NCBI GenBank assembly: GCA_963815115.1
Contig: CAWFFN010000005.1
Span: 1,408,001 to 1,472,000 of the forward strand
Reading direction: 5' to 3'
Origin: an uncultured delta proteobacterium
GTDB taxonomy: Bacteria > Desulfobacterota > Binatia > DP-6
Length of the DNA: 64,000 bases
Shown: positions 39,907-62,766 of the stretch, one piece after another
Layout of the letters: each line of letters starts with the position of its first letter
How positions within the stretch are numbered: the first letter of the stretch is position 1
Position numbers and translations under genes: made by a program
The notes under the pieces: generated by a model
The model's database searches: none
Told to the model about the DNA's origin: nothing
The model's input: only the letters and a program-made list of their open reading frames with translations

Positions 39907-39940
39907 GGGGCCGGCGCCGTCGCCGGCCCCCGTTGTTTCC
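39907..39940 (+). terminator. Intrinsic-terminator-like hairpin
   Basis: GGGGCCGGCG-ccgt-CGCCGGCCCC followed by cGTTGTTTCC. Confidence 0.45.
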
Positions 39941-40035
39941 TGGGCGCCGCGTCCGGACGACCGGTTCGGTCGCCCTCGCCGGCCGGGACGGCGAGGGGCG
40001 ATTCGGACGCGGCCCGGTGAACAGGCAGGCCGGGC

Positions 40036-41037: not shown

Positions 41038-41200
41038 GAACCAGCCACTTCGCGTGCTGCCGGCCGGATGTCAACACGCAACGCGGCGAAACCGGCCCCG
41101 ACGCGCCGACTTTACGCATGCCGAGCGCCGGTGCGGTGCGACGGGGTGGGCGCTCTTTCGACTTGACGGTGCGAACGCGAACGTGGTGACACAAGCGTCA

Positions 41201-43063: not shown

Positions 43064-43101
43064 CGCGGAGATTCGCCGAGCCCGCGCCGGCGTATTTTTC
43101 A

Positions 43102-43115
43102 TTGACACTCGTCAA
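43102..43115. promoter_or_regulatory. CRP/FNR-type palindrome TTGAC-N4-GTCAA overlapping a TTGACA -35
   Basis: ttgacactcgtcaa, 22 bp upstream of the ATG at 43138. Confidence 0.45.
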
Positions 43116-43137
43116 ATCCGGCGGGTACGACCGCACG

Positions 43138-44877: not shown

Positions 44878-45034
44878 GCGGGAGCGCGAGGGGTCACACG
44901 ACACCGGGACGCGTGCCGCTTCATCCGCGCTGTCGCTTTCCTGGGACGGCCGCGACCGTGCTATGCCGTTTGCGCGTCGGGGTGCCTCCTCCTCGTTGCA
45001 CCCGAGCCGATCGACCGACCAACGGAGGTACGAG

Positions 45035-45911
45035 ATGGCCCAGCTGAGGCGAGTGCCCGCGAGCGCGCCGGTGGACGACGTGGTTCGCGTGCTGCGTGAG
45101 GACGGCGGGGTGATCGTCGAGAACGTCATCGACCGTTCCACCGTTGCCGCGATCAACGCCGAGGTGGACGGCTACGTCGAGGCAGCCGATCCGGCGATGC
45201 GTCATCTGAACCCCGCGATCCAGTATCTTCTTCGGCGATCGCACGAAGCACGTCGGCGGCATCGCCGGGAAGTCACGCACGTTCGCCACCGAGGTCATGA
45301 TCCACCCGCTCTACCTCGGCATCTGCGATGCCGTCCTCGGCCCCTCGTGCGCGAGCTATCAGCTGAACCTCGCCCACCTGATCGCACGCGGTCCGGGCGC
45401 GGACCACCAGTATCTCCATCGCGACGAGCTGGTGTGGAACCTGGTGCCGCGCCCACATCCCGAGCTGCAGCTCGCCTCCCTCGTGGCGCTGGTCGACTTC
45501 GACACGGCGAACGGCGCGACACGTGTCGTGCCGGGCAGCCATCGCTGGGAGCTCGACCGCCATCCCGAGGACGACGAGATCGCCGACGCCGTCATGCGCG
45601 CCGGTTCGGCCGTCGTCTACCTGGGCTCGACGCTCCACGGCGGCGGCGCCAACTCGACGCTCGATCGATGGCGCCGAGGGGTCCACATCAGCTACACGCT
45701 CGGGTGGCTGCGCACCGAGGAGAACAACTACCTCGCCGTACCGCCGGCGGTCGCGCGCACCCTGCCGCGGCGCTGCCAGGAGGTCCTCGGATACGCGGTG
45801 CACGACGCCCTGCCGCGGAACGGTGGCTACCTCGGCATGGTGTCGCTGCGCGATCCACTCGAGCTGCTCGAGGACGGGACCATCGGTGGCGACCCGCGGA
45901 CGCCGCCCTGA
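45035..45911 (+). CDS. Phytanoyl-CoA dioxygenase (PhyH) family 2OG-Fe(II) enzyme, frameshift near 45228
   Basis: QYLHRDE, NGATRVVPGSH, LHGGGAN, GWLRTEEN; RBS GGAGG. Confidence 0.88.
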
Positions 45912-47308: not shown

Positions 47309-49006
47309 CTACCCGATCCCGTGCTGCGCCATCCGGCGATAGAGGGTCGCCCGGCTGACGCCCAGCAGCGCCGCCGCGGCCTTCCGCTCCCCGCCGGCGC
47401 GCGCGAGCGCCGCCACGATGCGCTCGCGTTCGTCGGCGGGCAGATCACCCGCGGTGGCGACGGGCGGAGCATGCTCGAGCACCTCGGACGGCAGGTCCTC
47501 GAGCTCGATTGCGGCGCCGGCGCAGTGGATGACCGCGTAGCCGAGGGTGTTCTTCAGCTCGCGGACGTTGCCCGGCCACTCGTACGCCAGCATCGCCTGC
47601 ATTGCCTCGTCGCTCACGGCATCCACGCGACGGCCGGTGAGGGCTCGCTGCTCGGAGAGGACGTGCCGGACGAGCAGCGGAAGGTCCACGCGGCGCTCGC
47701 GCAGCGGCGGCAGATGGATGCGCCCGACGCGGATCCGGTACAGCAGATCGGCGCGGAATCGGCCGACCGCGACCTCCGTCGCCAGCTCGCGGTTCGCCGC
47801 GGCGACGATCCGGACGTCCACGGGCCGAGGCTGGGTCTCGCCGATCCGCATCACCGTCCGCTCCTCGAGCACGCGCAGGAGGGTGGTCTGGACGCGCGGC
47901 GGAAGATCGCCGATCTCGTCGAGGAACAGCGTGCCGGCGCGCGCCGCCTCGAACATGCCGGTGGAGTCGGCGACCGCGCCCGTGAAGGCGCCGCGGCGGT
48001 GGCCGAAGAGCTGGCTGGCCGCTAGCTCCTCCGAGAGGCCCGCGCAGTTCACCGCGACGAACGGACCCTTCCGCCGCGTACTCTCGCCGTGGATCGCCCG
48101 CGCCACCAGCTCCTTCCCGGTACCCGTCTCACCCTCGATGAGCACCGTGACGTCGGTCGGAGCGACCTGTTTCACCAGCCGGACGACTCGCTGGATCGCC
48201 TCGCTCCGCCCGACGAGATCGTGGAAACTGCCCTGCTCGTCCAGCAGCCGGCGGAGGCCGTGCACCTCCGAGACGTCGGTGAGGAAGAATATCTTGCGCT
48301 CGGGGGCGCGTGGGTCGTCCTCGATCTCGATCTCCACCACCGAGTCGTCGGGCGAGCTGCCGGGCAGGCGGGCGACGACCTTCTGCCGCCGCGTCGGCGT
48401 CGTCCGCAGGAGCGCTTCGACGCGGCGCCGGGCGTCGCCCGATAGCCGGAGCCCTTCCGGCCAAGGGAGGTCGAGCAGCGTGCCGGGGTCGACGCCGAGG
48501 ATGCGGCCGGCGGCGGCGTTGGCGAAGACGATCCGACCAGCTGCTTCCACGAGGACGTTGCCGGTGCGCTGGACATCGAGGACCGCGAGCAGGTCGTCGT
48601 GGCTGCGTCGTAGCGCCTGATCGAGGCCATCGCGGTAGAGCGCGATCTCGATCGTCGCGTGCAGGTCGCGCTCGTCGAACGGCTTGACGATGTACCCGTG
48701 TGGCGATACGCGCTTCGCACGCTCGAGCGTCTCCGCATCGGCGAACGCGGTGACGAAGACGACCGGTACGGCGAGCTCGGCGCGCAGTCGCTCCGCCGCG
48801 GCGATGCCGTCGGCACCGTCGCGCAGCGCGATGTCCATGAGGACCAGGTCTGGTCGCACCGCGGCGGCCTGGGCGAGAGCACTGGCATACGAGTCCGCGA
48901 TGCCGACGACCTGGTATCCGAGCCGACGCAACCGGCCCTCGACGTCGAGCGCAACGACGGCTTCGTCCTCGACGACCAGGATGCGCGTTGGCTTCGTGGG
49001 GTCCAC
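47309..49006 (-). CDS. Sigma54-dependent activator (REC-PAS-AAA+-Fis HTH)
   Basis: VEDE/LMDI/KPF receiver, GETGTGKE, GAFTGA, FLDEIG, WPGNVREL, LGVSRATLYR. Confidence 0.92.
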   Translation of the reverse strand: MDPTKPTRILVVEDEAVVALDVEGRLRRLGYQVVGIADSYASALAQAAAVRPDLVLMDIALRDGADGIAAAERLRAELAVPVVFVTAFADAETLERAKRVSPHGYIVKPFDERDLHATIEIALYRDGLDQALRRSHDDLLAVLDVQRTGNVLVEAAGRIVFANAAAGRILGVDPGTLLDLPWPEGLRLSGDARRRVEALLRTTPTRRQKVVARLPGSSPDDSVVEIEIEDDPRAPERKIFFLTDVSEVHGLRRLLDEQGSFHDLVGRSEAIQRVVRLVKQVAPTDVTVLIEGETGTGKELVARAIHGESTRRKGPFVAVNCAGLSEELAASQLFGHRRGAFTGAVADSTGMFEAARAGTLFLDEIGDLPPRVQTTLLRVLEERTVMRIGETQPRPVDVRIVAAANRELATEVAVGRFRADLLYRIRVGRIHLPPLRERRVDLPLLVRHVLSEQRALTGRRVDAVSDEAMQAMLAYEWPGNVRELKNTLGYAVIHCAGAAIELEDLPSEVLEHAPPVATAGDLPADERERIVAALARAGGERKAAAALLGVSRATLYRRMAQHGIG

Positions 49007-49010
49007 GGGC

Positions 49011-50861
49011 TCAGCGCTGCGCGACCGCGGCGTGCGGTCTCTCGACCACGGGGAAGGTCAGCGTGAACCGGGTCCCGCTGTCGCCCTCGACCGACGAGAC
49101 CCCTCCCAGCTGCCGCACGAGCGCCGCGATCAGCCTCTGTCCGAGCGACCCGGGATGCTCCTGGCCATTCGGCAGCACAGGAAGCCCGACGCCGTCGTCG
49201 GCCACGACGAGGGTCGCGGAGCCGTCCCCGCAGTGGAACGCGACGGTGATCGTCCCGCTCCGGCCGTCGGGAAAGGCATGCTTCAGGACGTTCGAGAGCA
49301 GCTCGTTCAGGACCAGCCCGCAGGCGATTGCGACGTCGAGCTCCAGGGCGACCGGGTCGACGTCGAGCGTGAGCCTGACCGGCCGGCCCACCACTCCCGC
49401 CGATGCGAGCACGTTCCGCGTGAGCCCCTCGACGTAGTCGCGGAAGTCGACCCGCGCGAGATCACCCGACCTGTAGAGCTGCTCGTGGATCAGGGCCATC
49501 GAGCGGATCCGGTTCTCGCTCTCGTGGAAGAGTCGCGCGGCTTCGGGCGATGCCGAGTCTTCGGCCTGGAGGTACAAGAGGCTGGAGATCACCTGGAGGT
49601 TGTTCTTCACTCGATGATGCACCTCGCGCAGCAGTGCCTCCTTCTCGGCGAGCGAGCGGCGCAGCTCTTCCTCGACCTGCTTCCGGCGTCGGATGTCCCG
49701 CGCCACCCACACGCGGCCTTGTGGACGTCCCGCACTGTCGTGAAGGTCTCGTGGCGTGCAGACGACCGGCAGGGTCGCGCCACTCCGCGTGACCACCTCG
49801 GCCTCGCCCGGGCCGTTGGCGCCGTTGCCTGGCCCGCGAATCACCTCTCCCACGTCGCGCCCCACCAGCTCGACCTCGCTCCACCCGAGTTGCTCGATCG
49901 CGGCCTGGTTCACCGTCTGAACGCGACCCGCCGGGTCCGTGGCAATGAGCATTTCGCCCATCGACCGGATGATGTCGTCCACGTAGGACTTCGATACCGT
50001 GGTCGTTTGGAGACGCTCCGCCATCTCGTTGAACGAGGCGGCGAGCGCCCCGAGCTCGTCCGAGGAAGTCTCCGCCACACGGACCGCCAGGTCGCCGGCC
50101 CCGAGACGGTCGGCCGCGTCGCAGAGTCCCGCGATCGGACGCGCGATCGAGCGCGTGGTGAGGAACCCGAGGAGCACGGCCAGCCCGAGCGCAAACACGG
50201 TGAGCAGCGTGTTGTCACGATCGGCCTTGGCGAGGGCGGCCTCGACCACGGCGACCGCCTCGAGCAGCTCCCGCTCGGCCGCTTCCTGGTAGCCCTGGAT
50301 GAGCGGCAACAGCACGTCGACGTAGTGGGGCTCGATCCGTTGGTCGAGGTAGCGCCCCGCCGCGTCCGGGTCCGAGGGCGCGACCTCTTCGAGCTGCCCC
50401 AGCAACGATCGGTGGGCCGCGATCTCGTCGTCGAGCCGGTCGAGCCAAGTCGAGATCTCGTACCGCTCCCGTGCGCTGGCCCGGGCGTCTCCCACTTGCT
50501 CGGCCATCGCCAGCGCGCCCTCCGTGGCGCGCCGGCTCGCTTCGAGCTGTTCCTCGAAGGTGGACAGGCCGATCTCGATGGCCTTCGACTGGCCGGCGGA
50601 TCTGGGCTGCTGCGACCGCGAGCCGCGGCGCGCCGAACGTTCGCTCCATGAGGCCGACACCAGCTCCCGTGCCGCGAGCTCCGTCTCCTTGAGTGCGATC
50701 AACATGTCGACCGCCCCCACCAGCTCCTGGATGGAGTTGCGCCGCAGGTGCTCGACCTGGACCCGCACCGCGTTGTTCGCGACCGTCGAGCGCCAGCCGA
50801 CCACGCCAACGAGCGCGGCGATCCCCAGCAGGCACAGGGAGATCTTGAGCCCGATTCGCAC
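49011..50861 (-). CDS. Membrane sensor histidine kinase (HAMP-PAS-HisKA_2)
   Basis: Two TMs, DELGALAASFNEM, EVHHRVKNNLQ, NELLSNVLKHAF, DDGVG. Confidence 0.92.
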   Translation of the reverse strand: MRIGLKISLCLLGIAALVGVVGWRSTVANNAVRVQVEHLRRNSIQELVGAVDMLIALKETELAARELVSASWSERSARRGSRSQQPRSAGQSKAIEIGLSTFEEQLEASRRATEGALAMAEQVGDARASARERYEISTWLDRLDDEIAAHRSLLGQLEEVAPSDPDAAGRYLDQRIEPHYVDVLLPLIQGYQEAAERELLEAVAVVEAALAKADRDNTLLTVFALGLAVLLGFLTTRSIARPIAGLCDAADRLGAGDLAVRVAETSSDELGALAASFNEMAERLQTTTVSKSYVDDIIRSMGEMLIATDPAGRVQTVNQAAIEQLGWSEVELVGRDVGEVIRGPGNGANGPGEAEVVTRSGATLPVVCTPRDLHDSAGRPQGRVWVARDIRRRKQVEEELRRSLAEKEALLREVHHRVKNNLQVISSLLYLQAEDSASPEAARLFHESENRIRSMALIHEQLYRSGDLARVDFRDYVEGLTRNVLASAGVVGRPVRLTLDVDPVALELDVAIACGLVLNELLSNVLKHAFPDGRSGTITVAFHCGDGSATLVVADDGVGLPVLPNGQEHPGSLGQRLIAALVRQLGGVSSVEGDSGTRFTLTFPVVERPHAAVAQR

Positions 50862-51046
50862 GTTCTGGCAGACCGCATAGCAGGACGGCGCCGGGGACAC
50901 GATGCCCCACGACGCTGTCCCCTCCCGCGCGGCCAGCGTCGAACGGCGCCCGCATCGAGGGGCGTTCCACCTTGACATTGGCGCGTTCGGCCTCGAGATC
51001 GAAGGTTCGGCTTTTGCTAGGAAGGTCGTTGGTGCCCGCTACCCGC

Positions 51047-52132
51047 ATGAAGGGATCCGGCCTCCTCGCGATCGCCTGCCTGGGGCTGCTCGCCACGGGC
51101 TGTGGCGAGCGGCGGCCTTGCGGAGCCGCGCCGGGTGGCGCGTCGAAGTCTGCCGCCCTCGGGCTCCGTCGGGCGGCGGAGAGCGTCGCGGCCATGGAGG
51201 TCCTCGGCCTTCACTGGTCCGCCGATCCGCGGCGTTCGGACGTGCTGCTCCTCGGCTATCCGGACCTGGGGCTCACGCAGATCGCGGGCGCCGAGTCCGC
51301 ATGGCCGGACGACGCGACCGGCCTCCACCACACCTACGCCGAGGACTTCGACGGCGTCGGAGCGACGTGCAACGGCGAGCTCCACTATCTCCTCGAGGGC
51401 CGGCATGCGGAGCTCACGGCACGGATGCTTGCCGCCGATCTCGATGCCCTCCTCGATCTCACCCATCCGGTCGACGTCTACACACACGCCGACTTCGACG
51501 GCCACCCCGATCATGACGAGGTGTCCAGGCAGGTGGCGGCTGCGCTCGCGCGCAGCCGGCGCGGTGCCGTCCTGCACACCACGTTGATCCATCCGCAGGG
51601 CACGGCCGACTGCATGGCGCTGTCCGCTGCGGAGTGGCCCAACCCGCCCCTCGAAGACGACGATCCATTCGCGCGTTTCACTCCCGCGCTCGACGTCGCC
51701 GCGCCGCCGCTGCCGCCGTGCGCGATCCGTCCCGACGGGGCGGCCTGGGGTCCGCTCGGGCCGCCCGACGAGCTCGTGGAGGTCCCGTCGGAGATGCAGG
51801 CGGCGGAGCCCGGCGGCAACCTCAAGTGGCGCGCCATCGCGTGCTACACCTCGCAGGTCGATTGCACGCGGCAGGACGACGGCCACTACCGCGCCTCCTG
51901 CGGATACATGCGGGCGTTCGTCAAGCGCCACGAGTTCTTCTGGACGCGCCGCTTCGGCGACGCGGCAGCCCGCGACGCCGCGGGACCAGTCCTCGTGGTC
52001 GGCGCGCATCCCGACGACGAGGCGCTCGGCGCCGCGGGTGTCATCGTGCGGGCGCGGGCGGCGGGGCGCCGCGTCGTCGTCGCGATCATCACGAACGGCG
52101 AAGGGCGTGCCCGGGCCGCCGCTCCGCGCTGA
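51047..52132 (+). CDS. PIG-L/LmbE-family deacetylase lipoprotein with circularly permuted motif order
   Basis: LATGC lipobox; RRAAES..LG, GYPD and HPDH come first; AHPDDE and TNGE lie at the C-terminus. Confidence 0.75.
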   Translation: MKGSGLLAIACLGLLATGCGERRPCGAAPGGASKSAALGLRRAAESVAAMEVLGLHWSADPRRSDVLLLGYPDLGLTQIAGAESAWPDDATGLHHTYAEDFDGVGATCNGELHYLLEGRHAELTARMLAADLDALLDLTHPVDVYTHADFDGHPDHDEVSRQVAAALARSRRGAVLHTTLIHPQGTADCMALSAAEWPNPPLEDDDPFARFTPALDVAAPPLPPCAIRPDGAAWGPLGPPDELVEVPSEMQAAEPGGNLKWRAIACYTSQVDCTRQDDGHYRASCGYMRAFVKRHEFFWTRRFGDAAARDAAGPVLVVGAHPDDEALGAAGVIVRARAAGRRVVVAIITNGEGRARAAAPR

Positions 52133-52135
52133 GCG

Positions 52136-53587
52136 TCACCACCCGCCGGAGAGCGCGTCGCGCGCCGTGGCGGCGAGCTCGCGCCAGCGTTCGCGCCCGA
52201 GGAGCCGCAACGCGGCGGCATAGACGAGGATGCCGGTGGCGACGAGAACCAGGAGCGCCGTGACGTTCGACGTCGCCACCGCGGGTCGGAGCGCATACAC
52301 GGAGGCCGCCATGAGGAGTGCAGCGCCCGTCGGCGGCGCGAGGCTGCCGGCAAGCTCTCGCACCGAGACGCCGAGAAGGCGGAATGCGGCTGCCAGCGCC
52401 ACCGTGCCCGAGACGACTGTCGCGAGCAGGAGGGCCGAGGCCGCGCCGACGGGCCCGTAGCCCGTGAGGAACCAGAGAGCGGCGGCAAGCGACGGCAGGT
52501 GCACGATGGCGAGACCCGGGATCCATCCCCGGCCGGCCCGCGGCCTTGAAGACGTCCCCCGTGGTCGCCACGAGCGCGTTCACGAGGCCGAAGATCGCGA
52601 AGATCTGGAGCGGCGCTACCATGCCGGCCCAGCGCGGTGGATAGAGCGCGGCGACCAGGACGGGGGCGATCACGAGCAGACCGAGCGATGCGGGCAGTGC
52701 GACGGTGCTGACGGTGCGCAGGACGCGGAGATACGCGGCCTGCAGGCGCGCCGGCTCGTCCCGCACCGCGACGTAGCTGGGAAAGGCCACCTGGTTCACG
52801 GTCGTCCCGAGTGCCTGCGATGGCAGGCGACCCCAGCGGAAGGCCGTCCCGTAGAGACCGAGGGCCTCGGCGCCGAGCCAGCGGCCCACGACGATGTTGT
52901 CGAGGTACGAGCCGAACAGGCCGAGAAGGTTCCCGGCCACCATGTGTCGCCCGAAGCGCGCCATCTCGCGGAACCGCACCCACGCGAAGCGCCCGAGCGG
53001 CTTCCACGGCGCGAGCCACCAGGCTGCCACACCCGTGACCGTTGCGCGTGCCAGTTGAGCGCCGACGAGGGACCAGTAACCCGCCCCGCGCAGCGCGAGG
53101 CCGATCCCGAAGAGCCCTCGGTCAGCGCCGCGGCGATGGCCACGGTGGCCTTCGTGCGGAAGGCGAGCTCCTTGGAGATGACGGCGAGCGGCGCGACGGC
53201 CAGGCCGTTGAGGACGAAGACGAGCGCCAGGACGCGCATGACCGGCACGACGTCCTGCCGCCCGAAGAGCGCGCCCGCCAGCGGCGCCGCGAGCACGGCC
53301 AGGGCGGCAACACCGAGCCCCGTGACCGGCGTGCTCCAGGCGATCGTGGCCGCCGACTCGCGCATCGCGTCCTTCCGCGCCACGAACGCCGGCAGGAGCC
53401 CAGAGTCGTGGAACGGGCCGACGAAGGCGAGCAGCAGGTTGGCCATCGCGACCAGTCCGAAGTCCTGCGGCGAGAGGACACGCGCGAGGAGCACGTTGCT
53501 CGCCATCGCGATCAGCTGCGTGGTACCGAAGGAGAAGGCGATCCACGCCGCGCCGCGGGCGGCGCGACGACCGAGCGCCGGGGTCAC
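52136..53587 (-). CDS. wzx: Polysaccharide flippase (Wzx, PST family), frameshifted
   Basis: LARVLSPQDFGLVA, KELAF, DNIVVGRWLG.EALGLY, QVAFP. Confidence 0.85.
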
Positions 53588-53613
53588 GGATGCCGGAGCG
53601 GCCTCGCGCGATG

Positions 53614-54895
53614 CTAGACGAGTCGTTTGAATACGGCCTCCAGCTGCCCTGCCGTCGCATCCCAGGAGTGGCGCGAAGCCTCGGCACGGGCGCGGCCCGC
53701 CAGCGCCTGGCGCGCCGCCGGCGACGACAGGAGGGATGCGACGCATCGGCGAGCGCAGGATGATCTCCGGGCGGGACGAGGATGCCGGCGTCCCCGACGA
53801 GCTCGGGCGTTGCGCCGCTACGGGTCGCCACCACGGGAAGGTCCATGGCGAGTGCCTCGAGCACTGGAAGCCCGCACGGCTCGGGGGCGAGCGAGGGGGA
53901 CACGAAGACGTCTGCGGCGGCGAGCAGGCGCCTCACCTCCGCGGGCGCGAGGGCGCCGAGCAGTCGCACGTCGGCGCCGGCTGCCCCGCCCGCCACGCGC
54001 TCGGCGTACTTCGGCACCAGCGCTTCGAGCTCGCGCCAGCCGGCGGCGCGCGCGCGCCCGGGACGCTCGTAGGCACCGCCCAGTTGCCCCACCATCGCCA
54101 CGACGGGCCGCAGGCCGCGTTCGGCCAGCAGGGCCGCAGCCGCGGCCAGCACGTGCTGACCCTTCTCCGGTGCGACCCGCCCCACGACGAGGACGAGCGG
54201 CCGATCACGTGCATCGAGGCGCTCGCGCCACCATGCGACCTCGTCTCCTTCGGCCGCGGCGACGGCGGAGCGGCCCGGAAACGCCCTCAGGTCCACGCCG
54301 TTGCGCACGGTGAAGGTCCGCTCCGCGAGCCGCGGTTCCGCCGCGATGACGGCGTCGCGAACGTAGTCGCTCACGGTGGTGACCGCGTCGGCGCGAAGGA
54401 GACGCCGCGCGAGCCGCGGGTGATCGTCCACCCAGACCGCGTGCAGCAGTGTGACGAGCGCGGTCCCCCGGGCGAGCAGCCGTGCGGGCAGCAGGTTCGC
54501 GAACTCATGGGTCACCTGGATCGCCTGCACCCCGGCGCGCCGCAGCGTCTCGACCCCGCGCAGAAGGTGCCAGGGATGGTGGCGCCGAGCGGACCACCGG
54601 GTCCGTCCCAGCGGTACGAGGCGGCGGAGCACCGGGTCGAGCCGGTCGGGACGGCGACGACGTCGATGCCGTCGGCCGTGGTGGCGGTGGCTTCCGCGCA
54701 CGCCACCGTGACGGACGCGCCGCGGCGCCGCAGCGCCTGGGCGGTGTTCCAGACGACGGCGTCGAGCGAGGAGTAGGACGCGTCGGCGCTCGGCAGCCGC
54801 GACTTCCACGAGCCGAGGAGGCCGACACGGAGCGGAGCGGTTGCCTCCGGCACCGGCGCTCCCCGTGCCCCGACCTGATCCGACCCAGACGTCAT
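53614..54895 (-). CDS. GT4 glycosyltransferase, frameshifted
   Basis: VRNGVD, GRVAPEKG, EPCGLPVLEALA. Confidence 0.85.
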
Positions 54896-56244
54896 CGAGC
54901 CACACCCGCGGCTGACGCTCGTCGGCTGGGGTGCGTCCCGTCGCGCTCGGCCCGTTCCAGCGCACTCGCGACCACATCGGCCACGACCGCGTGACCCGCC
55001 GGATTCCAATGGCCGTCCTTGGGGAAGTAGAGACCGTCGTCCCGGCGAGCGCGCAAGATGGGCAGCAGGTTGACGAAGGGGACCTGCTCGGTGCGTGCGA
55101 ACGCCCGTAGCCGATCGGCGAACGTGGTGTCGGTGAGCGCGCGGTCGTCCCACGCGAAGCCGAGCGACTCGAGGTAGGGCCTGGCCGCTGCCGTCACCTG
55201 CTGCGCCGCGGGCGCGAAGACCAGCACGGGCCGCGCACCCGCGTCGCGCGCGAGCGTGACGATGCGAGCGAGGTCACGTGTGACGTCGTCCCACGCTGCG
55301 TCGTACCGCCGCGGTAGCAACGCCGCATCGGCGAAGAGCCGCGGCTGCACGAGCGCCATGACCCGGAGGTAGGGCTCCGTCGCGGCGTCGTCGTCGAGCG
55401 GAACGGTTCCCTCCAGGACGGGTCGGAGCGCGTTCAGCTGGCTGGCCGGCATGGTTGCGACGGCGTCCTGGACCGTCTCGCGCCGCCCGTAGCGGTCCGC
55501 CAGCGCCAGCAGAACGGCTTTGGCCGTGTCCTTGGCTGGAGATGGCGCAGCCGCGGTGGTGTCGGGATGGAGACCCTCGGCCTGTGCGTGCGCGGAGCCG
55601 GGGCGCAGGGCCTCCAGCCTGTTCCACACGAACGGGTAGAACGCCGGGAACAAGGCGCGGGGGATGCGCGTCCACGTGGGAGACGGTTCCAGCACTGCGC
55701 GGCGAGCATCCACGAGGACACGAGACGCGAACTGCACCCCGAATTCGCGCTGCACCCAGCGATCCTGGACGTCGTTCGCCATGACCGTCACGATCACCAT
55801 GTCGGGCTCGTACGCCAGCCCGGGATCCTGCAGGTGGCCCACGTAGTCCCGCGGATTCGCCCCCGGGACGCCGAGATTCACCACCTCGTGCCGTCCTCCG
55901 TCTCGCGCGTCGAGCACGGCCTCCAGGCGCCGAGGCCACGCGTCGTGCTCCGCGACGCCGTATCCCTGTGTGAAGGAATCGCCCAGCGCGATCACCCGCA
56001 GCACGCCTGGCGGCTTGGGCGACGGCAACCGGCGCTCGCGGAATCCGAGCGCATTCAGCCGCACGTCGACCGAGAACTCCGCGTGCTCGATACGCCGCTC
56101 CTCGTTCGGGTGGCCCCGTGCCGGGGTGTAGGTCAGGTCGAAGAACGCGATCGCTCGGTCGAGCACCGCCACGGTGAGCAGGATGCTCAGCAGCACGGCT
56201 GCGAACCGTACAGACACGGCCGCGACGCGTCCGGTGACGGTCAC
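54892..56244 (-). CDS. SGNH-hydrolase-family protein (AlgX/AlgJ-like polysaccharide O-acetyl modifier)
   Basis: N-terminal TM, LGDSFTQG, NLGVPG, ND, DGHWN..GH. Confidence 0.82.
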   Translation of the reverse strand: MTVTGRVAAVSVRFAAVLLSILLTVAVLDRAIAFFDLTYTPARGHPNEERRIEHAEFSVDVRLNALGFRERRLPSPKPPGVLRVIALGDSFTQGYGVAEHDAWPRRLEAVLDARDGGRHEVVNLGVPGANPRDYVGHLQDPGLAYEPDMVIVTVMANDVQDRWVQREFGVQFASRVLVDARRAVLEPSPTWTRIPRALFPAFYPFVWNRLEALRPGSAHAQAEGLHPDTTAAAPSPAKDTAKAVLLALADRYGRRETVQDAVATMPASQLNALRPVLEGTVPLDDDAATEPYLRVMALVQPRLFADAALLPRRYDAAWDDVTRDLARIVTLARDAGARPVLVFAPAAQQVTAAARPYLESLGFAWDDRALTDTTFADRLRAFARTEQVPFVNLLPILRARRDDGLYFPKDGHWNPAGHAVVADVVASALERAERDGTHPSRRASAAGVAR

Positions 56245-56433
56245 GTCAGCGCCCTTGCTGGATCGGGTCCGCCATGCGCAGCCGTAGTCTCAGTCCAGAC
56301 ATGTGAACCCGCGCCGCCTGGGCCGAGGTCGCCAGCTGGACCACGATTGCGTGAGATGCGTTGACAACGTTCTCGGAGGGTCGCTTAGTGTTCGACGACG
56401 GCCAGGCCGTTCGGTTCGCCGCCTCGCCACCTG

Positions 56434-58111
56434 ATGGCCCAGATCATGTTCGGCGCCCGCACCATGCTCGCGCTCTCGCTGGCGATCGCCGTGCTCGGCG
56501 GCCCGTGGGCAGCACGGGCCGGCGGCGCATCGCCGGTCGCCGAGGGCGCCACCTACTTCTCTCGCCCACGGGGGACGACTCGAACCCAGGTACGACCCCC
56601 GATCGCCCCTGGCAGCACTTCGAGAAGGTGCTGAACGCCTCCAGGCCTCTGCGTGCCGGTGACACGGTCGTCCTCCTCGACGGCACCTACACGCGTCAAA
56701 CGACCGGGCTGCCCCACGTGGACTGCCGCACCGACGGGAACGCGCGGAACGGGACGCCGGGTCGGCCCATCATCGTACGCGCGCAGAACGAACGACGGGC
56801 CTTCCTCCAATCGGATGGCGACGCTCCAGGGTTCGCCATGGAAGGGTGCAGCTGGTGGCGCGTCGAGGGACTTCGGGCGGCGAGCCGGGACGCCGATGCG
56901 CCGCAGGCGGGTGGCTACCCGGTGCGTCTCTCCAAAGTCGATCACGTCACGCTGAAACGGCTGCTCGGTTCCCACAACAATCGGCGGCAGAACACGCACG
57001 TCTTCGCCGTCGAGGACAGCACGAACGTACTGCTCGAGGAGTGCGAAGCCTACTTCTTCCACCGCCACGCGTTCAGCATCTGGCGCTCGCGGTTCGTCAC
57101 GGTCCGGCGGTGCTATGCGAACTCGATGCGGTACGGGGAGCGTGGCTGCTGCAGCACGATCGACAATCGTGCGTATGGTGACGAGGCATTCTCGCTCTAC
57201 GGAACGTCGGACAGCATCGTCGAGAACAGTATCAGCGAGAACGAAGCGAACGGCTTCCAGATTCACGGCATCGCGAACCCCCTCGACCCGTCCGGGAGCG
57301 GGGGACGAGACAATCGGACCTGGGCAGCGTGTCCCTGGACGACTCCGTGCCCCTGCTCGTGTCCTCCCGGATGGTCGACGGCACGTACCGCAACGCCGGG
57401 GGGAACGAGATACGCGACTTCATCGCCGCGAGCATGAGCGGCGCTGGCATCTACCTGCGCGGAGCGACCGGAACGCTCGTCGAGCACGCGACGCTGTACG
57501 GCTCGGGTGGACCGGGTGGCCTCGTCGCCGACGGTGGCGATCCGGGGCTTGGCGGGTCGTGCGGTTCGAGCAATTCGGAGGGATGCAGTCTGATCGCTCG
57601 CTACGTGCTGTCGCTGGGCCACAAGCACGGCCACGGCTTCCTGGTGTCGGGGTACGAGAACTGGCTCATCGAGTGGTCGAACGCCTCGGGGAACCGGGTC
57701 GACTACGGGTCGCCGGAGCCCCTCGACGATGACGCCGGCCACATCAGGCGTTCCCGAACGGTCGACGCACCCGAGATGGGTCTGGGCGACGCGCAGTGTC
57801 TGATCCGGGTTCCCGAGAGCTCGACGCTGAAGAACGCTGCCAGCGGGGCGCACGACGTCGGCGCCACGATCCTCGATCGCTACACCGACGGAAAGCTCAC
57901 CCCGCAGGCCCTCTGGGACCCTGCCACCGGAGCTTTCCCGTGCGGCGCCGTGGTGGCGGGCATCAACGACGGCCCGATCCGGTGCACGAACGTCCACGAA
58001 CGCCTCCACGTCAATGCGCATGGCTGTCGTCCGCAAGCATCGGCTGCGAGCGAAGCCCCACCGGAAGCTGGTGACGATGCAGATGCCGGAGGATCGCGCG
58101 GTAGCCGGTGA
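56434..58111 (+). CDS. Secreted parallel beta-helix protein (polysaccharide-lyase-like), frameshifted
   Basis: SPTGDDSNPGT..PW, GDTVVLLDGTY, GTPGRPIIVRA, beta-helix repeats. Confidence 0.7.
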
Positions 58112-60010
58112 GCGCGCCGCGGAGGCCGCGGGCGGCCGGATCGCGCAGAATGAGTAGCATCGCACCGAGGGACGACCAGGCGTACACGATCCAGTCGACG
58201 GGACCGCGCGCCAGGTGTTCCCGGAAGAACAGGTAGCGATTGAACACCGCCATCGCTTGATGCTCGTCGCGCAGCGGCCGACCTCCTCCGGCGTGCCGAT
58301 GCTCCAGCCGAGCCTCCGGCGTGAGCACGAGCTTCCAGCGGCGAGACACCCGGTAGGAGAATTGAAGGTCCTCACCGAGCGCGTAGCCACCCAGTCGCTC
58401 GTCGAAGCTCAGGGCGTGAAGCACCTCGCGCCGGTACGCCATGTTGCAGCCGGAAAGGCATTCGACCTCCATCCTCGAGCGCGGGGAGAACACGTAGTCG
58501 GGACGTCCCGACCGTTTCACGACACCGCGGCCGTAGGTGTCGAGGAGGAAGAGCCGGCACGCCGTCCGTCGGAGAAACCCTTCACGCGGGGTCGGATCCG
58601 GAACCTGCGCCCCGCCCGCTCCGCCGATCTGTCCGGTGCGATCCTCCTCGAACGTGCGTGCAACCGCTGCCAGGTACGCCGGCTCCAGGATGACGTCGTC
58701 GTCGAGATAGACGAGAACCGAGCCGGTCGTGGTACGCGTCCCGAGATTCCGTTGGCGAGGGAGCCCGGGTAGCGAGCCGATCAGCGCGACCCGGCAGCCC
58801 GGCATGCCTCCGGCGAGGCGGTCGGCCGCGTCCCGGGCCGGCGTCGCGCTGGCATCCACGATCACGATTTCCTCTGGACGCCGGGTCTGGGACCGAAGTG
58901 ACGCGAGACACGCGGCCAGTAGCTCGGGGCGGTCCTTGGTGCAGATGACGATGGAGAGGGTGACGGGGCGGGGGCTGGTGCCGGACTCGCCGGCCGTTTG
59001 AGCCAGGTTGTTCGGGGGCCCGACCGCGTCTCCGATTGCCCCCCGCAGCAGACCGAGGCCGTACGCGAGGTGCATGCCGGCCACGGCGCCCGGCAGCAGC
59101 AGCCGCTCCCGCCAGCGCGCGCCCCGTGCGGCGCACGAGGCCCCGACGAGGACGGCGCCCACGCGCCCGCGAGCAGCGCCAGCGCGGCGTGCGCCGCCGG
59201 GACGACGGTACCGGCCACCGCGAGCCCCGCGAACGCGACGACGAGCGCACTCGGCGCGAGGTGGCGCGGCGCCAAGAAGTCGGGGTGCTTGCGCAACACG
59301 CGCATCCTGCCGCGGCCGTAGTTCCAGTACTGCCTCCACAGGCCCGCGAGCGATGCGCGCGGACGGTAGAGCTGGCGCAGCGCTGGGCACAGCATCACCT
59401 GGAAGCCACGGCGCCCCAGGCGCCAGTTGAGCTCCTCGTCCTCGCCATACGCCATGGCGGGGTCGAATCCACCGACGGACAGGAGCGCCTCGCGCCGGTA
59501 TGCGCCGCACTGCACGGTGCGGACTGGATGGTCATGTGGAAGACGGTCCGCGCCGTAGCCGCCCCCCACGCCGAGGCGTGAGGAGCGCGCGAGACCGGCC
59601 ACGCGCTCGCGCAGCGTCTCACCGACGGGCAGGAACGCCCCACCCACGGCGGCCGCCTCGGGATGGCGGTTGAGGGCCGCCACGACCTCGGCGACGTAGC
59701 CTCGATCGAGATGGCTGTGTGCGTCGACGCGCGCGACGATCTCTCCGCGCGCGGCCCGAACTCCGGCGTTCATGGCCTCGGCGTGGTTGACCGCCTGGGA
59801 GAGGAGCACGTCGACGCGGGGGTCGCGCGCCGCCCACGCCTCGGCGACTGCGCGCGTGCGGTCGCGCGACCCGTTCTCCACCACGACGACCTGCAGCCGG
59901 TCGCGGGGCCAGCGCTGTGCCGTGATCGAGGCGAGGCAGAGGTCGAGGGATCGCTCCTCGTCCCGAGCCGGCACCACCACGGACACGAACGGCTGCTGCT
60001 CGGCGTTCAT
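58011..60010 (-). CDS. Tandem GT2-GT2 glycosyltransferase (ExoA-like plus second GT2), one frameshift near 59160
   Basis: VSVVVPARDE, RVDAH, GEDEELN, QYWNYG; then SIVICTKDR, YLDDD, GCNMAYR, GED. Confidence 0.75.
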
Positions 60011-60710
60011 CGAGGGCGCTCCAGCAGCGCCGCCCAGTGTGTCCGCAGCGGCGGGAGGCGGCGAGCACGGGATAGAGCAGCGGCGTGAGAGAATGAAGGT
60101 GGCGGGCGAGTGGCGGCAGCAACGTGACCAGCCGGAAGGTTCCAGGCCACCCGGGAAACAGCCCGCGGACGGACCGTCGCGACATCGCCCGCACGTGCGG
60201 GTTCCGCGGGTTGCCGACGCGGAAATCGTACCAGAGGAGCGCGCCGCCCGGTCGGAGCACGCGTCGCACTTCGCCCGCTGCCTGCCGTGCGACCCCGTCG
60301 TCGAGGACCGAGGTGAACAGCGTGAAGCAGAGCGCGAGATCGAAGCTGGCGTCGCGGTAGGGGAGGGCCGTGGCATCGGCGACGTCGAAGGCGAGCTCGG
60401 GCCAGCGAGCATGCGCGCGCACGACGGCGTCGGTCCGGACGTCGATGCCAATGAGGCGAGCGGGCAGGGCGCCCCAGCGAACGAGGCCGGCCAGCACCTC
60501 GCCGTCCCCGCAGCCGAGGTCGAGCACGCGTCGGCTGCCGAGCGGCAGGCGCCCGGACCCCTCGAGCAACCCGGCGAGTACGCGTGTGCGCTCGTCCGCC
60601 ATGGCGCGATTGCCGGGATGGTTCGCCGCCCACTCCCGCGCGCCGCGCCCACGCTCCGCGTACCCGCGGTAGACGCGCCGCACCCGGGCGATCTCGTTTG
60701 CCACAGCCAT
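60007..60710 (-). CDS. Class I SAM-dependent methyltransferase (frameshift near 3' end)
   Basis: VLDLGCGDG, LPY.DASFD, RVLRPGG. Confidence 0.85.
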
Positions 60711-62766
60711 CACGCCACCGCCGCGGGTGTACCCGTCGGGTCGAGTCCGCTCGCATCCTCGGTCCACCCGAGTGCCGTCCGGGCGTGCGTGCAGTCGAAT
60801 CGGAGCCGCGCGCCGGCGGCGCGCATGCGGTAGGGTGTGATCGGCGACTCGCGTCCCAGGAGGCGAGCGAGTGCCGCGGCCGCGACGGCGCCGGCGCGCA
60901 CGAGAGGTTCGGGAATGCGCCGCACGCGAAGGCGACGGTCGCGCGCAAGGCGGGTCGCGAGCGTGCCCGCCGTCGTCGTCTGGTCGCTCACCACGTGGAG
61001 CACCGTGCCGGGCTCGAGCGCCGGAACGGAGCCGGCGCGGACGATCAGCTCGGCCGCGTCGTGCACCGAGATCAGCGGCGGGGCACCGGCGGGGTCTCCG
61101 AAGAACACGAGCTGCCGTCCGATCACGACGGCGTTGAGCGCGTCGATCCCGGGTCCGTCCGGGCCGACGAGGATCCCCGGGCGGACGATCACGGCGCGCA
61201 GCCCCCGTTCCCGCACCGCGTCGAGCACGAGCCGCTCGGCGAGCAGCTTGGCCCGCGTGTAGGCTCCACGCGCTTCGGGTCTCGGCTCGAGCGGCGCCTC
61301 CTCGGTGACGAGCGCATCATCGAGCGCGCCCCAGTCGAGGACGGAGAGCGAGCTCACGTGGACCAGCCGCGCGACGCGGTGCCGCAGGACACTGTCGACC
61401 ACGTGCTGCGCTCCCGCCACCGTGCCGCGTGCATGCTCCGCCCACGGTCCGTGCAGCGCGGCGCCGGCATGATAGACCGCCCGCACGCCCGCCACGGCGG
61501 CGTCGACTGCGACCGCGTCCCCGAGGTCGCCGAGGACGATGTCCACTCGGGGGTGGCGGAGCGGCCCGTCCGTGGGCGGCCGGCGGCAGAGGGCACGCAC
61601 GCGCTGGCCGCGCGCCACGAGCTGCTCCACGAGCTGGCGGCCGAGCCGGCCGGTCGCGCCGGTCACCAGCGCGTCGGCGCCGGCACGAGGACGTCGTGCC
61701 TGCTCGCGCAGCCGCTTGGCCGCGTCGGCGAGCCGGGCTGCCTCCTCGACCCAGCGCACCACGCGACGGCCGTCCTCGAGCGATGCGGGCATCGGCGTGC
61801 CGTCGGCCAGCGCGACGTAGAACCGTTCCACGGCGTGCCGCAGCCCCGCATACGGCCGCAGCCTCCCCGACACCCAGCGCAAGCCGTTCGCGGGTACCGA
61901 GCGCAGTGCGGGCCAGCCCTCGCGGAGGGCCCCGGCGGCACGGTCGAGCGCGTGGGGCAGGCCGCTGGCGCGCCGGACGGTCGCGAACATCGATCCCACG
62001 TCGGCACGCAGCGTGCCTCCGGTCGCGTGCACCGTGAAGACGGTCTGCAAGGGCCGGACGCTCCAGGATAGCCGCACGTGTCCGACCCCGCGCTCGCAGA
62101 GCACCACCACGTGCCACTCGTCGAAGCACAGGTTCGGGTCGCCGCCTCGTGACACGAAGACGGGCTCCACGCCCTCGATCTCGCCGAGCACTGCACGCAG
62201 CAGGTAGAGCCCGTGCACACCGAGGTCGCGGAACGGGTTGCCACCGTCGCGGTAGTGTTCGGGCGGCGGGCCCTCCTGCCACGACGGATAGGCCGCGCTG
62301 CAGAAGTACTCGGCGCTCACGGCTGCCCGACGCGACCGGCGGCGACGGCGTCGAGCACGTGGCGCACCTGCGGATCGGCGAGCAGCGAGTGATTCACGCC
62401 GACGCGACGACCGCGCAGCGAGGCGACCTGGGCGAGGTGCATGCAGTCGGCCTCACTGGTCGCGAGCGGCTTCTCGACCAGCACGTGGCAGTCGCGCTCG
62501 AGGGCCTCGAGCGCGACCTGCGCGTGCGTGTGGGGCGGGGTGAGGACGTGGACCACGTCGATGCCGGCGGCGACCATGGATTCGAGGTCTGGAAAGACGC
62601 GGACGCCGCGGGCACGGGCCGCGAAGTCGCGCGCCCGCGCCGCGTCGCGGTCGGTGACGCCCACCAGCACGGCGCCGGGGAACCGCGTCAGGGCGTCGAG
62701 GTGTACTCTGGCGATCGCGCCGGTGCCGACGAAGCCGACGCGGAACGGTCTCGGTGGCTGCCTCAT
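60710..62766 (-). CDS. Gfo/Idh/MocA oxidoreductase fused to an NAD-dependent epimerase/dehydratase (frame break near 62318)
   Basis: VGTGAIA, LTPP..H, VEKP, DLGVH; second domain VTGATGRLG, HVSS, YTRAK. Confidence 0.8.

Follow-up and report, generated by a model that had tools for sequence, protein, structure and literature searches.

The LmbE-like (PIG-L, PF02585) superfamily is defined by an HXD1D2 motif and a further His residue, with two His and one Asp as the metal ligands and one Asp as the general base (PMC4101496). The characterized structures include those of BshB/BC1534 (2ixd), TT1542 (1uan), MshB (1q74, 1q7t and 4ewl), diacetylchitobiose deacetylase (3we7), LnmX (5bmo), Dbv21 (3dfi) and GalB (5cgz). 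In every LmbE-like enzyme tabulated, the H-x-D-D motif comes first and the third ligand is located 97–148 residues downstream (PMC4101496). In these standard-order members, the H-x-D-D half of the metal/catalytic site is provided by an N-terminal β1-α1-β2 unit that ends in TxG[DE]. The characterized members are, to our knowledge, cytoplasmic. The Pfam family was founded on eukaryotic PIG-L (GlcNAc-PI de-N-acetylase), which cleaves the N-acetyl group from lipid-linked GlcNAc before this lipid is flipped, and does so on the cytoplasmic face of the membrane.

Exopolysaccharides are de-N-acetylated by enzymes of other families, among which PgaB is a lipoprotein. PgaB, IcaB and PelA (CE4) and Agd3 (CE18) are periplasmic or extracellular exopolysaccharide de-N-acetylases (PMC6307706, PMC9384988, PMC12022489). 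Natural circular permutations are represented by saposin/swaposin and the DNA methyltransferases, and a permutation by duplication model has been presented (Bliven and Prlic, PMC3320104). No paper linking circular permutation to LmbE or PIG-L was found in the open-access literature searched.

The window, a stretch of 64,000 nucleotides from an uncultured bacterium, carries a gene whose product is very probably an LmbE-like metallohydrolase that has been genuinely circularly permuted, with the permuted form fixed in evolution and a predicted metal site; this degree of confidence applies to the explanation as a whole. The permutation alters the topology and not the homology of the protein, which is a new topological variant of a known superfamily and not a new kind of system. 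The rearrangement is common to a small group of uncultured bacteria.

Order of the motifs in the LmbE-like protein

The open reading frame (51047-52132, + strand) runs through 361 residues without interruption, and the third-position GC of 0.80–0.95 along the gene favors this frame. Its features are the following.

51047..52132, + strand: permuted PIG-L/LmbE coding sequence, 361 residues plus stop, in a single frame; Pfam PIG-L match of 70.5 bits in two swapped stretches
51047..51103, + strand: putative signal peptide with a lipobox-like LATG-C, Cys19 codon at 51101-51103 (sequence inspection)
51113..51952, + strand: body, residues 23-302, equivalent to P0088 residues 57-334, with GYPD, HPDH and a C-terminal subdomain ending ...RHEFFWTRR
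51167 (first nucleotide), + strand: RRAAES, residues 41-46 (motif scan)
51254-51265, + strand: GYPD, residues 70-73 (motif scan)
51503..51514, + strand: HPDH (H153, D155, H156), residues 153-156, invariant in 46 of 46 homologs and aligned to TT1542 residues 90-126
Residues 260-270, + strand: K..AI.CY.SQ (motif scan)
51953..51982, + strand: linker FGDAAARDAA, residues 303-312, joining the old C-terminus to the old N-terminus
51983..52102, + strand: relocated β1-α1-β2 unit, residues 313-352 (BLASTP, 60% identity to P0088 residues 8-55; Pfam positions 1-41)
52004-52021, + strand: AHPDDE, residues 320-325, with H321 and D324 as putative ligands and D323 as the putative general base
52091-52102, + strand: TNGE, residues 349-352, nine residues ahead of the stop
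52103..52132, + strand: C-terminal tail GRARAAAPR and stop, aligned to P0088 residues 48-55, pLDDT below 60

The sequence-only reading had placed RRAAES, GYPD, HPDH, K..AI.CY.SQ, AHPDDE and TNGE in this swapped order, and all six motifs were found where it had placed them, each in a single copy and in the one frame. After the putative signal peptide, the chain starts in the loop that normally follows β2, with β1-α1-β2 encoded at the C-terminus.

The Pfam matches show the same swap. The full protein exceeds the PF02585 cut-off of 28.2 bits, and so do the two halves when searched separately, as that reading had suggested (33.3 and 41.5 bits). Profile positions 1-41 are matched by residues 316-356, and a search with only the N-terminal 298 residues places residues 34-166 on positions 47-128. 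With E values up to 10, PF02585 is the sole Pfam family reported in the protein, and there is no Polysacc_deac_1/NodB homology domain. The NCBIfam equivalogs BshB1, BshB2, MshB and Mca reach 15.7–32.1 bits, with matches confined to the 40-residue unit. These scores are far below the cut-offs of 182.5–277.15 bits, and the protein is therefore none of those enzymes.

The closest standard-order relative, P0088 (336 residues), aligns with the protein in BLASTP as two exactly complementary blocks. Residues 23-302 align with P0088 residues 57-334 (53% identity, E value 7e-93), and residues 313-360 align with P0088 residues 8-55 (60% identity, E value 1e-14). The swap is far beyond chance in this alignment, and relative to P0088 the chain is cut at one point without loss of sequence. 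About 45 residues of the standard N-terminus, with half of the putative metal site, are now located at the end of the chain. By the same alignment, the tail GRARAAAPR is the remnant of the loop after TNG[DE] in standard-order proteins.

A profile search against the Protein Data Bank gives the same arrangement. Residues 4-41 of TT1542 are aligned with profile positions 310-347, and residues 90-126 with positions 131-167. H156 is the putative third metal ligand by alignment to TT1542 and MshB. In the characterized enzymes H-x-D-D comes first, whereas here the order is reversed and H156 lies 165 residues ahead of H321. With Foldseek, no match in the Protein Data Bank was found at E values of 0.001 or below, and the top entries are LmbE enzymes (E values 0.28–0.5). 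This is expected, because a sequential aligner was applied to a permutant, and it illustrates how order-dependent domain models under-annotate such proteins.

The swapped order is shared by many homologs. Of 174 proteins whose core matches the profile over 240 positions or more, 55 are permuted (including that of the window), 107 have the standard order and 10 are without the segment; the remaining 2, giants with two domains, were left out. The permuted order is thus present in 54 other 90%-identity protein clusters. These have a putative signal peptide at the start and a stop 0–9 residues after TNG[DE], with the exception of P0061, which has a longer tail. In a scan of metagenome contigs, 7 of the 80 loci listed are close relatives; five of them are permuted, L089 has the standard order, and L090 is a tandem. 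In the five permuted loci (L085-L088 and L091) and in G001, the order from FFW to AHPDDE is in frame. The permuted gene is found in 2 of the 41 relatives' genomes searched, that of the window (G000) and one genome of the same genus, and in 1 of the 401 genomes sampled from the phylum, which is the window's genome itself. The matches listed in a scan of genome contigs are mostly to generic AHPDDE, and the only broad ones (L003 and L010) both have the standard order.

An artefact of assembly or gene calling would give the same picture if the frame were a chimeric join or came from the middle part of a PIG-L protein with two tandem domains. The subfamily does include tandem PIG-L-PIG-L proteins (L090/P0265, P0156, P0199 and P0191), and single-base indels are present in neighboring genes of this assembly and of G001. 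However, a histidine kinase gene on the other strand lies 68 bp upstream and the stop of the flippase gene 3 bp downstream, so there is no room for further PIG-L sequence. Moreover, the start and stop positions of the 54 other clusters frame the same order, and the junction is bridged by independent contigs, including Logan short-read contigs from runs X2 and X3, in which no joints are reported. An artefact is already contradicted by these observations and is extremely improbable. The best-matching sequencing run contains 0.15 of the sampled words, and no RNA run is among those listed.

Conservation, predicted fold and putative metal site

Residues H153, H156, H321, D323, D324 and E325 do not vary among the 46 aligned permuted homologs, which span 56–94% identity. 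Six further Cys residues are conserved in 45–46 of the 46, or in 36 of 36 covering sequences. Both parts of the superfamily definition are present, as H321-P-D323-D324 and H153-P-D155-H156, and are aligned to the motifs of TT1542 and MshB. Relative to the characterized LmbE-like enzymes, the permuted protein also has a Cys-rich C-terminal subdomain of roughly 130 residues.

The protein is predicted to have the Rossmann-like α/β fold of the family. The AlphaFold2 model has a pLDDT of 87.7 and a pTM of 0.88, with pLDDT values of 92–98 for the strands and helix at the C-terminus (residues 311-350). When the body and the C-terminal unit were predicted as separate chains, the ipSAE was 0.96 (0.95–0.96 in three runs), compared to 0.02 for the best control; among solved complexes the mark used is reached by 116 of 157, and among mismatched pairs by 2 of 215. 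Contact agreement among the runs is at least 96%, and the partner pLDDT is at least 81. The predicted contacts with the lowest error are between residues 315-318 and 143-147 and between residues 344-349 and 65-71, and body residues 153, 155 and 156 are within the predicted interface. The C-terminal β-α-β unit is therefore predicted to dock between body strands 66-71 and 143-147, in the canonical β1 and β2 slots. The scores of both kinds of prediction may partly reflect likeness to solved or remembered LmbE folds.

This docking would restore the canonical sheet and place H321, D323 and D324 beside H153 and H156. One metal ion is predicted to be bound, and an N-acetyl (amide) group to be hydrolyzed, as in MshB or BshB.

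A real permutation in a protein that has lost catalysis and serves for binding or as a structural module, because the relocated unit forms no competent site, is very unlikely. The ligand geometry is known as predicted contacts, and AHPSNE in copy 1 of the L090 tandem protein indicates that degenerate motifs are tolerated in the subfamily. On the other hand, the ligands and the general base are unchanged throughout the permuted sequences over their whole range of identity, and the predicted docking gives canonical strand neighbors and contacts H153, D155 and H156.

The sequence-only reading had proposed a natural circular permutation with a complete metal site. The first part is borne out by the conserved clade with the same swapped order (54 other clusters, five metagenome loci and a same-genus genome), the exactly complementary blocks, the independent contigs, and the fold predictions with their control. 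The second part gains indirect support from the invariant H321, D323, D324, H153 and H156 together with the predicted docking. That reading had also named three outcomes that would count against it. Misassembly was contradicted by the independent contigs that bridge the junction, and a truncated tandem protein by the lack of room in the flanks and the clade-wide order; the predicted docking of the separate chains speaks against a C-terminal segment that does not pack.

Relatives and origin of the permutation

The sister clade of standard-order proteins (about 330 residues, for example P0088) shows 53% identity to the permuted protein in the body and 60% in the relocated unit. It shares the motifs and the C-terminal ...SCGYMRAFVKRHEFFW signature, and P0088 is without Cys at the positions of C189 and C225 of the permuted protein. 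The sister clade has the normal order and, unlike the permuted clade, a leader of 0–16 residues before β1. This leaves no space for a signal peptide, and the sister clade is therefore probably cytoplasmic. One member, P0289, joins a Wzx flippase and a standard-order PIG-L domain in one chain, the latter with 65% identity to the sister clade. The long relatives with the standard order are secreted and have several domains, among them carbohydrate-binding or Ig-like modules.

Trees of the core alignment were rooted with 10 distant rows of standard order. In them, a single branch separates the permuted rows from all others and is nested in the standard-order rows. The permuted branch (55 rows) has an SH-aLRT value of 93 in a quick tree of 138 rows. 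In a careful tree of 87 rows, the permuted rows have UFboot and SH-aLRT values of 60 and 81, with one change in 58% of the bootstrap trees. Monophyly of the permuted clade is weakly supported by this alignment. Both trees leave out P0156, P0199 and P0191 (two-domain proteins), rows without a segment hit, cores of fewer than 235 residues, and all but 10 of the distant rows; for the careful tree, the long-branched rows P0141 and P0112 were removed as well, along with alternate rows of the permuted and the short standard-order groups.

The permuted order probably originated by tandem duplication and in-frame fusion, followed by truncation of both ends. A short standard-order gene would have been duplicated head-to-tail and fused in frame. 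The first copy would then have lost its 5′ end and acquired a signal peptide, and a stop would have shortened the second at its 3′ end. The linker between the profile boundaries has 5–6 residues in 47 of the 55 permuted proteins. In 49 short standard-order relatives, leader and tail together have a median of 5, equal to the permuted linker length. The segment and the core show the same similarity gradient across clades. In addition, L090/P0265 is a natural in-frame tandem PIG-L-PIG-L protein among the standard-order relatives. It was rejected as the ancestor itself, as its two copies are sister to each other and represent an independent duplication.

Fission of the gene and re-fusion of two separately encoded halves is a less probable route, and we consider it unlikely. 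Two body-only frames derived from NCBI, P0079 (258 residues) and P0121 (249 residues), have no AHPDDE segment as called. However, the start of each is an internal Met, and a late start call or a frameshift in the gene may account for them. Moreover, the match of the linker length to the leader plus tail of the standard-order relatives, the single cut point relative to P0088 with nothing lost, and the in-frame tandem fusion in the subfamily all argue against this route. Among the best 150 of 1006 representative hits and among 36 longer proteins, no intermediates with the A-B-A or B-A-B arrangement were found. By its coordinates P0259 was a candidate intermediate, and it was rejected as an ordinary distant PIG-L protein; P0149 and P0145 were rejected as frameshifted fragments.

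The duplication and truncation reading gives an unusually clean example of this process, in which the chain is cut once, the linker corresponds to the old termini in length, and some relatives are tandem fusions. The permuted protein resembles saposin/swaposin and the DNA methyltransferases in its relationship to standard-order proteins and in the proposed duplicate-fuse-truncate route. In contrast to those cases, it belongs to another superfamily, the moved piece is the central β1 unit with the putative catalytic residues, and the permutation coincides with the gain of an export signal. The central β1 unit, with half of the active site, can thus move to the C-terminus in nature.

Putative export signal, neighborhood and possible function

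By inspection, the N-terminus reads MKGSG-LLAIACLGLLATG-C19, with an n-region, a hydrophobic run and LATG-C19. The Cys19 column holds Cys in 34 of the 35 homologs that extend over it, and position -1 is G, S or A; position -3 of the lipobox is often A, and not L, V or I. The lipobox noted in the sequence-only reading is therefore plausible. From the conserved lipobox-like Cys, the protein is plausibly a membrane-anchored lipoprotein. The putative lipoprotein signal belongs to the permuted clade, the sister clade being without a signal peptide, and it also distinguishes the protein from the characterized LmbE-like enzymes.

The gene is located between a two-gene regulatory pair and a polysaccharide locus.

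47309-49006, - strand: sigma-54-dependent response regulator, divergent upstream (Pfam)
49011-50978, - strand: HisKA_2/HAMP/PAS histidine kinase, divergent upstream (Pfam)
52136..53746, - strand: Wzx-type flippase (Polysacc_synt_3), convergent, split over three frame pieces (Pfam; tblastn against the intact L086 flippase)
53740..54977, - strand: GT4-type glycosyltransferase (Glycos_transf_1), approximate coordinates (Pfam)
54892..62320, - strand: rest of the polysaccharide locus, with an SGNH/AlgX-like protein, two GT2, a methyltransferase and an epimerase/dehydratase with a GFO/IDH/MocA-like part (Pfam; the coordinates are frame extents, not curated gene models)

The flippase gene of the window has indels at about 52527 and 53113 relative to G001. 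The convergent pair of Wzx and GT4 genes is present in all three loci with flanks (the window, G001 and L086). In L086, this adjacency is kept at 70% protein identity with a different upstream gene, ManC. The histidine kinase and response regulator pair (47309..50978) is syntenic in G001, as judged by eye, and is not kept in L086. The permuted gene itself is convergent to the polysaccharide operon, outside it, and monocistronic. A consensus scan for promoters and terminators over 50700-52500 gave 0 sites and is uninformative at 71% GC.

A tentative assignment is that the protein is a periplasmic, membrane-anchored de-N-acetylase that may act on the glycan of the adjacent Wzx-dependent locus. 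The target would be an amino-sugar residue of this glycan, after flipping, and the signal-less sister clade would act on the cytoplasmic side. The link to the neighboring glycan, which the sequence-only reading had also drawn, is strengthened by the Wzx adjacency in all three loci with flanks and by the Wzx-PIG-L fusion in the sister clade.

A somewhat more doubtful possibility, which still deserves serious weight, is that the enzyme is active and its substrate is elsewhere, in chito-oligosaccharides or environmental glycans, peptidoglycan-derived sugars, or a glycolipid. The convergent, monocistronic position of the gene and the broken frame of the flippase of the window are consistent with this. 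Furthermore, the long standard-order relatives suggest extracellular glycan processing, and one solved family member is a diacetylchitobiose deacetylase. The retention of the Wzx and GT4 adjacency beside a different upstream gene and the fusion in P0289 point instead to the glycan of the neighboring locus.

If that glycan is the substrate, the likeness to PgaB, IcaB, PelA and Agd3 is in the proposed role alone, the partial de-N-acetylation of a secreted amino-sugar polymer past the inner membrane. The CE4 and CE18 enzymes are unrelated in fold and family to the permuted protein, which matches PIG-L only. The locus here is also of the Wzx/GT type, while pga, pel and ica are synthase-dependent. 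For the Wzx-fused sister clade, which, like the permuted gene, is linked to a Polysacc_synt_3 flippase, eukaryotic PIG-L offers a close functional parallel. Compared to the permuted protein, eukaryotic PIG-L has the standard order, is an ER membrane protein, and is distant in sequence, and the permuted protein is predicted to be on the opposite side of the membrane. The locus points to an uncharacterized PIG-L subfamily that is linked to Wzx flippases where uncultured soil bacteria have polysaccharide loci, and to a candidate route to cationic, partly de-N-acetylated glycans. The finding would be of use to protein engineers and glycobiologists.

More speculatively, and rather doubtfully, the permutation might mark a change of compartment, from a cytoplasmic ancestor beside a flippase to a periplasmic lipoprotein acting after flipping. 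On the cytoplasmic face, the ancestor would have removed the N-acetyl group of a lipid-linked sugar, as eukaryotic PIG-L does. With the chain opened in a surface loop, and not at the buried central β1, an N-terminal lipid anchor would have become compatible with the fold. The protein would then be a natural case of a circular permutation enabling the relocation of an enzyme across a membrane, and a counterpart of PgaB or PelA with the LmbE fold, which we take to be CE14-type.

Motif order and integrity of the gene

The protein is encoded by a single open frame of 361 codons, 51047–52132 (+), with a third-codon-position GC content of 0.80–0.95 throughout. The PIG-L motifs, each present in a single copy, are arranged as follows.

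Residues 41–46, RRAAES
Residues 70–73, GYPD
Residues 153–156, HPDH
Residues 320–325, AHPDDE
Residues 349–352, TNGE, nine residues ahead of the stop

The sequence-only reading had described these motifs as swapped, each occurring once in one uninterrupted frame, and all are at the places that it gave. The Pfam stretches are swapped as well. The PIG-L model (PF02585) matches the protein with 70.5 bits (cut-off 28.2) in two stretches of reversed order, profile positions 1–41 corresponding to residues 316–356. When the first 298 residues are searched alone, residues 34–166 correspond to profile positions 47–128.

Two BLASTP blocks relate the protein to P0088, a standard-order relative of 336 residues. 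The body (residues 23–302) aligns with residues 57–334 of P0088 (53% identity, E 7e-93), and residues 313–360, which include the relocated β1-α1-β2 unit, align with residues 8–55 (60% identity, E 1e-14). Between them, the two blocks account for all of P0088 except the termini and residue 56. In this alignment the chain is cut at one point, within the loop that follows TNG[DE], and nothing is lost or duplicated. In a comparison of the permuted-family profile with TT1542, a solved standard-order LmbE-like enzyme, residues 4–41 of TT1542 (HPDD motif) correspond to profile positions 310–347, and residues 90–126 (HPDH motif) to positions 131–167.

In a review of the superfamily (PMC4101496), its members are defined by an HXD1D2 motif and an H motif, with the third ligand 97–148 residues past the second. 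The counterparts here are H321, D323 (the general base), D324 and H156, the last of them 165 residues before H321. These four residues, together with H153 and E325, are invariant in all 46 aligned permuted sequences.

A homolog search (E ≤ 0.001) found 151 proteins. Separate profiles of the body and of the 41-residue unit were used to classify order in the 174 proteins whose body matched over 240 positions or more. The body precedes the unit in 55 of them, the window's protein included. The unit comes first in 107 and is absent in 10, and two giants, each carrying a pair of separate PIG-L domains, were left out of the count. The permuted proteins are 56–94% identical to the window's protein. 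They have a putative signal peptide at the start and the stop 0–9 residues past TNG[DE], P0061 being the sole exception with a longer tail.

The upstream neighbor, a histidine-kinase gene on the opposite strand, ends at 50978, and the convergent flippase gene downstream has its stop at 52136, so that further PIG-L sequence cannot hide on either side. These flanking genes and the 54 other proteins sharing the order rule out a truncated middle of a tandem PIG-L protein. With regard to misassembly, short-read contigs from two runs bridge the junction without joints (51855–52247 and 51821–52107). The order from ...EFFW to AHPDDE is also repeated at the DNA level, in a single frame, in five metagenome loci (L085–L088 and L091) and in the same-genus genome G001. 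The natural circular permutation proposed earlier is borne out by the two complementary blocks and by the order common to 55 proteins, and these comparisons indicate a real, conserved natural permutant of an LmbE-like metallohydrolase.

Predicted fold and packing

The AlphaFold2 model (46-sequence alignment) has a mean pLDDT of 87.7 and a pTM of 0.88. The C-terminal unit is predicted as a strand (315–319), a helix (324–338) and a second strand (343–349), with pLDDT of 92–98. For the packing test, residues 20–306 and 307–361 were predicted as two chains together with a zinc ion. The ipSAE values were 0.95, 0.96 and 0.96 in three runs, compared to 0.02 for the best control; of the solved complexes, 116 of 157 reach the ipSAE mark, as do 2 of the 215 mismatched pairs. 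Contact agreement between the runs is at least 96% and partner pLDDT at least 81.

The lowest-error contacts are those of residues 315–318 with 143–147 and of 344–349 with 65–71. They give a predicted sheet order of 66–71 / 343–349 / 315–319 / 143–147, or 3-2-1-4, the strand order of a Rossmann-like sheet. The interface includes body residues 153, 155 and 156, and the HPDH loop is predicted to lie against the relocated unit. The predictions support, but do not prove, that the C-terminal unit packs into the body, as the sequence-only reading would require, and both the AlphaFold2 and the split-chain predictions may recall solved LmbE folds.

Distribution and origin of the permuted order

With the query used, the permuted gene was found in 2 of 41 relatives' genomes (its own and one of four other same-genus genomes). 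Of 401 genomes sampled from the phylum, a single one gave a match, again its own. The three other PIG-L genes of this genome all have the standard order, and no close paralogue of the permuted gene was found there. At 50% clustering, a single permuted full-length representative is present among the best 150 of 1006 hits, so the clade is narrow and probably young. Circular permutation in nature is a familiar phenomenon; a search of open-access papers turned up none on a permuted protein of the LmbE/PIG-L superfamily. The value of this clade lies in its clean evolutionary record and in a possible link between permutation and a change of compartment.

Trees were built on the body regions, with 10 distant standard-order rows as the root. 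The permuted rows fall together on one side of a branch, with a standard-order clade of ~330-residue proteins (including P0088) as sister, and the two groups are nested within a set of long, secreted proteins of standard order. A quick tree of 138 rows gives SH-aLRT values of 93 (permuted group) and 99 (sister clade). In a careful tree of 87 rows, the permuted group has a UFboot of 60 and an SH-aLRT of 81, and 58% of bootstrap trees have one change. The best estimate is a single origin, for which the body alone gives weak support; the shared cut point, which also bears on it, is a rare character in itself.

A model of permutation by duplication is described in PMC3320104. Three observations, linker length, similarity gradient and tandem fusions, favor this route here. 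The linker from the old C-terminus to the old N-terminus has 5–6 residues in 47 of the 55 permuted proteins. This equals the leader plus tail of short standard-order proteins (median 5, n = 49), matching the expectation for an in-frame head-to-tail fusion. Median identity to the window's protein (unit/body) is 78/63% in the permuted clade, 68/54% in short standard-order proteins, 66/49% in long ones and 49/30% in the outgroup. The gradient is the same for both parts, which places the source of the unit within this subfamily and not in some foreign PIG-L protein.

In-frame tandem PIG-L fusions are present among the relatives. One is P0265, encoded by locus L090 (505–3093, +) in an open frame of 863 residues, counted from stop to stop; it is a secreted protein in which two complete PIG-L domains follow each other. 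A signal peptide is followed by PIG-L (AHPSNE), polyproline, PIG-L (AHPDDE), polyproline and a C-terminal He_PIG Ig-like domain, with ~35 prolines in each run. Copy 1 is decayed (AHPSNE for AHPDDE), and copy 2 has HPEH for HPDH. The copies are each other's closest kin, and this independent duplication is therefore an example of the route, not the ancestor. No half-truncated duplication intermediates were found among the best 150 of 1006 representative hits or among 36 longer proteins.

Two NCBI-derived ORFs, P0079 (258 aa) and P0121 (249 aa), are relevant to a rival origin by fission and fusion. They contain the body only (MALLGL... to ...EFFWT...), with the AHPDDE unit at neither end as called, and could be genes whose start was called too late, genes with a frameshift, or truly split forms.

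GT2, nucleotidyltransferase, C-methyltransferase and SDR genes lie downstream of the L090 tandem gene. The giants P0156 (2095 aa), P0199 (2727 aa) and P0191 (2061 aa) have two PIG-L domains 500–900 residues apart. Many other standard-order relatives are secreted multidomain proteins of 500–3000 residues, with CBM, fibronectin-type, sialidase-like or DUF modules (Pfam).

Polysaccharide locus and putative role

At the N-terminus of the permuted proteins, a basic n-region is followed by a hydrophobic run and [GSA]-Cys. This cysteine is present in 34 of the 35 sequences covering its column, which suggests that the proteins are lipoproteins. A further six cysteines are also conserved, a pattern to be expected of an exported protein. 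In the sister clade only 0–16 residues precede β1, leaving no signal peptide.

In all three loci with flanks (the window, G001 and L086), a Polysacc_synt_3 flippase gene and then a GT4 glycosyltransferase gene lie tail to tail with the permuted gene. L086 is 70% identical, and its upstream gene differs (ManC). Further along the window's locus are an SGNH/AlgX-like protein, two enzymes of the GT2 type, a methyltransferase and an epimerase/dehydratase.

52136–53746 (−), Wzx-type flippase, in three frame pieces
54892–56244 (−), SGNH ORF, with a GDSL/SGNH lipase-like domain (residues 84–177) and an AlgX-type SGNH domain (residues 303–437)

The second ORF is a candidate O-acetyl-modifying enzyme of the locus. 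A sister-clade cluster, P0289 (822 aa; 22 member sequences), is a flippase-PIG-L fusion.

P0289 residues 32–324, Polysacc_synt_3 (Wzx-type) flippase
P0289 residues 490–677, standard-order PIG-L

Its PIG-L part is 65% identical to P0088, and its flippase part 33% identical to the flippases beside permuted genes. P0289 is a Rosetta-stone protein that connects this PIG-L subfamily with glycan flipping. The permutant is probably exported as a lipoprotein, and its gene is linked to a polysaccharide locus of the Wzx-dependent type.

The flippase/GT4 adjacency, the P0289 fusion and the export signal together point, tentatively, to an enzyme that may de-N-acetylate an amino sugar of the adjacent locus's glycan on the periplasmic side. 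Other glycans may instead be its substrates. The periplasmic role would be analogous to that of PgaB and PelA, exopolysaccharide de-N-acetylases of the unrelated family CE4. For the sister clade, the site of action would be the cytoplasmic side, next to the flippase, much as eukaryotic PIG-L acts before GlcN-PI flips. Thiol-pathway identities are excluded, since the NCBIfam models score far below cut-off for the window's protein.

Residues 78–263, 258–480 and 452–582 of the intact L086 flippase correspond to window frames −1, −3 and −1, respectively. Compared with G001, the window carries an additional C within a C-run near 52527 and lacks one base near 53113; the flippase is in one frame in both G001 and L086. 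The split gene is either a recent pseudogene or the product of two assembly indels. The permuted gene of G001 (L083, G001:C4) has three single-base deletions relative to the window at ~2180–2340, corresponding to window positions 51729, 51758 and 51883, leaving ~50 codons out of frame and a garbled stretch visible in its protein, P0024. Together with the flippase indels, these deletions suggest indel-prone assemblies in the genus rather than decay.

Upstream ORFs at 38434–45911 have Pfam matches to a PGAP1-like α/β hydrolase, a copper monooxygenase C-terminal domain, a right-handed β-helix, a DUF5122 β-propeller and a PhyH dioxygenase, and look like a secreted-protein region unrelated to the permuted gene.
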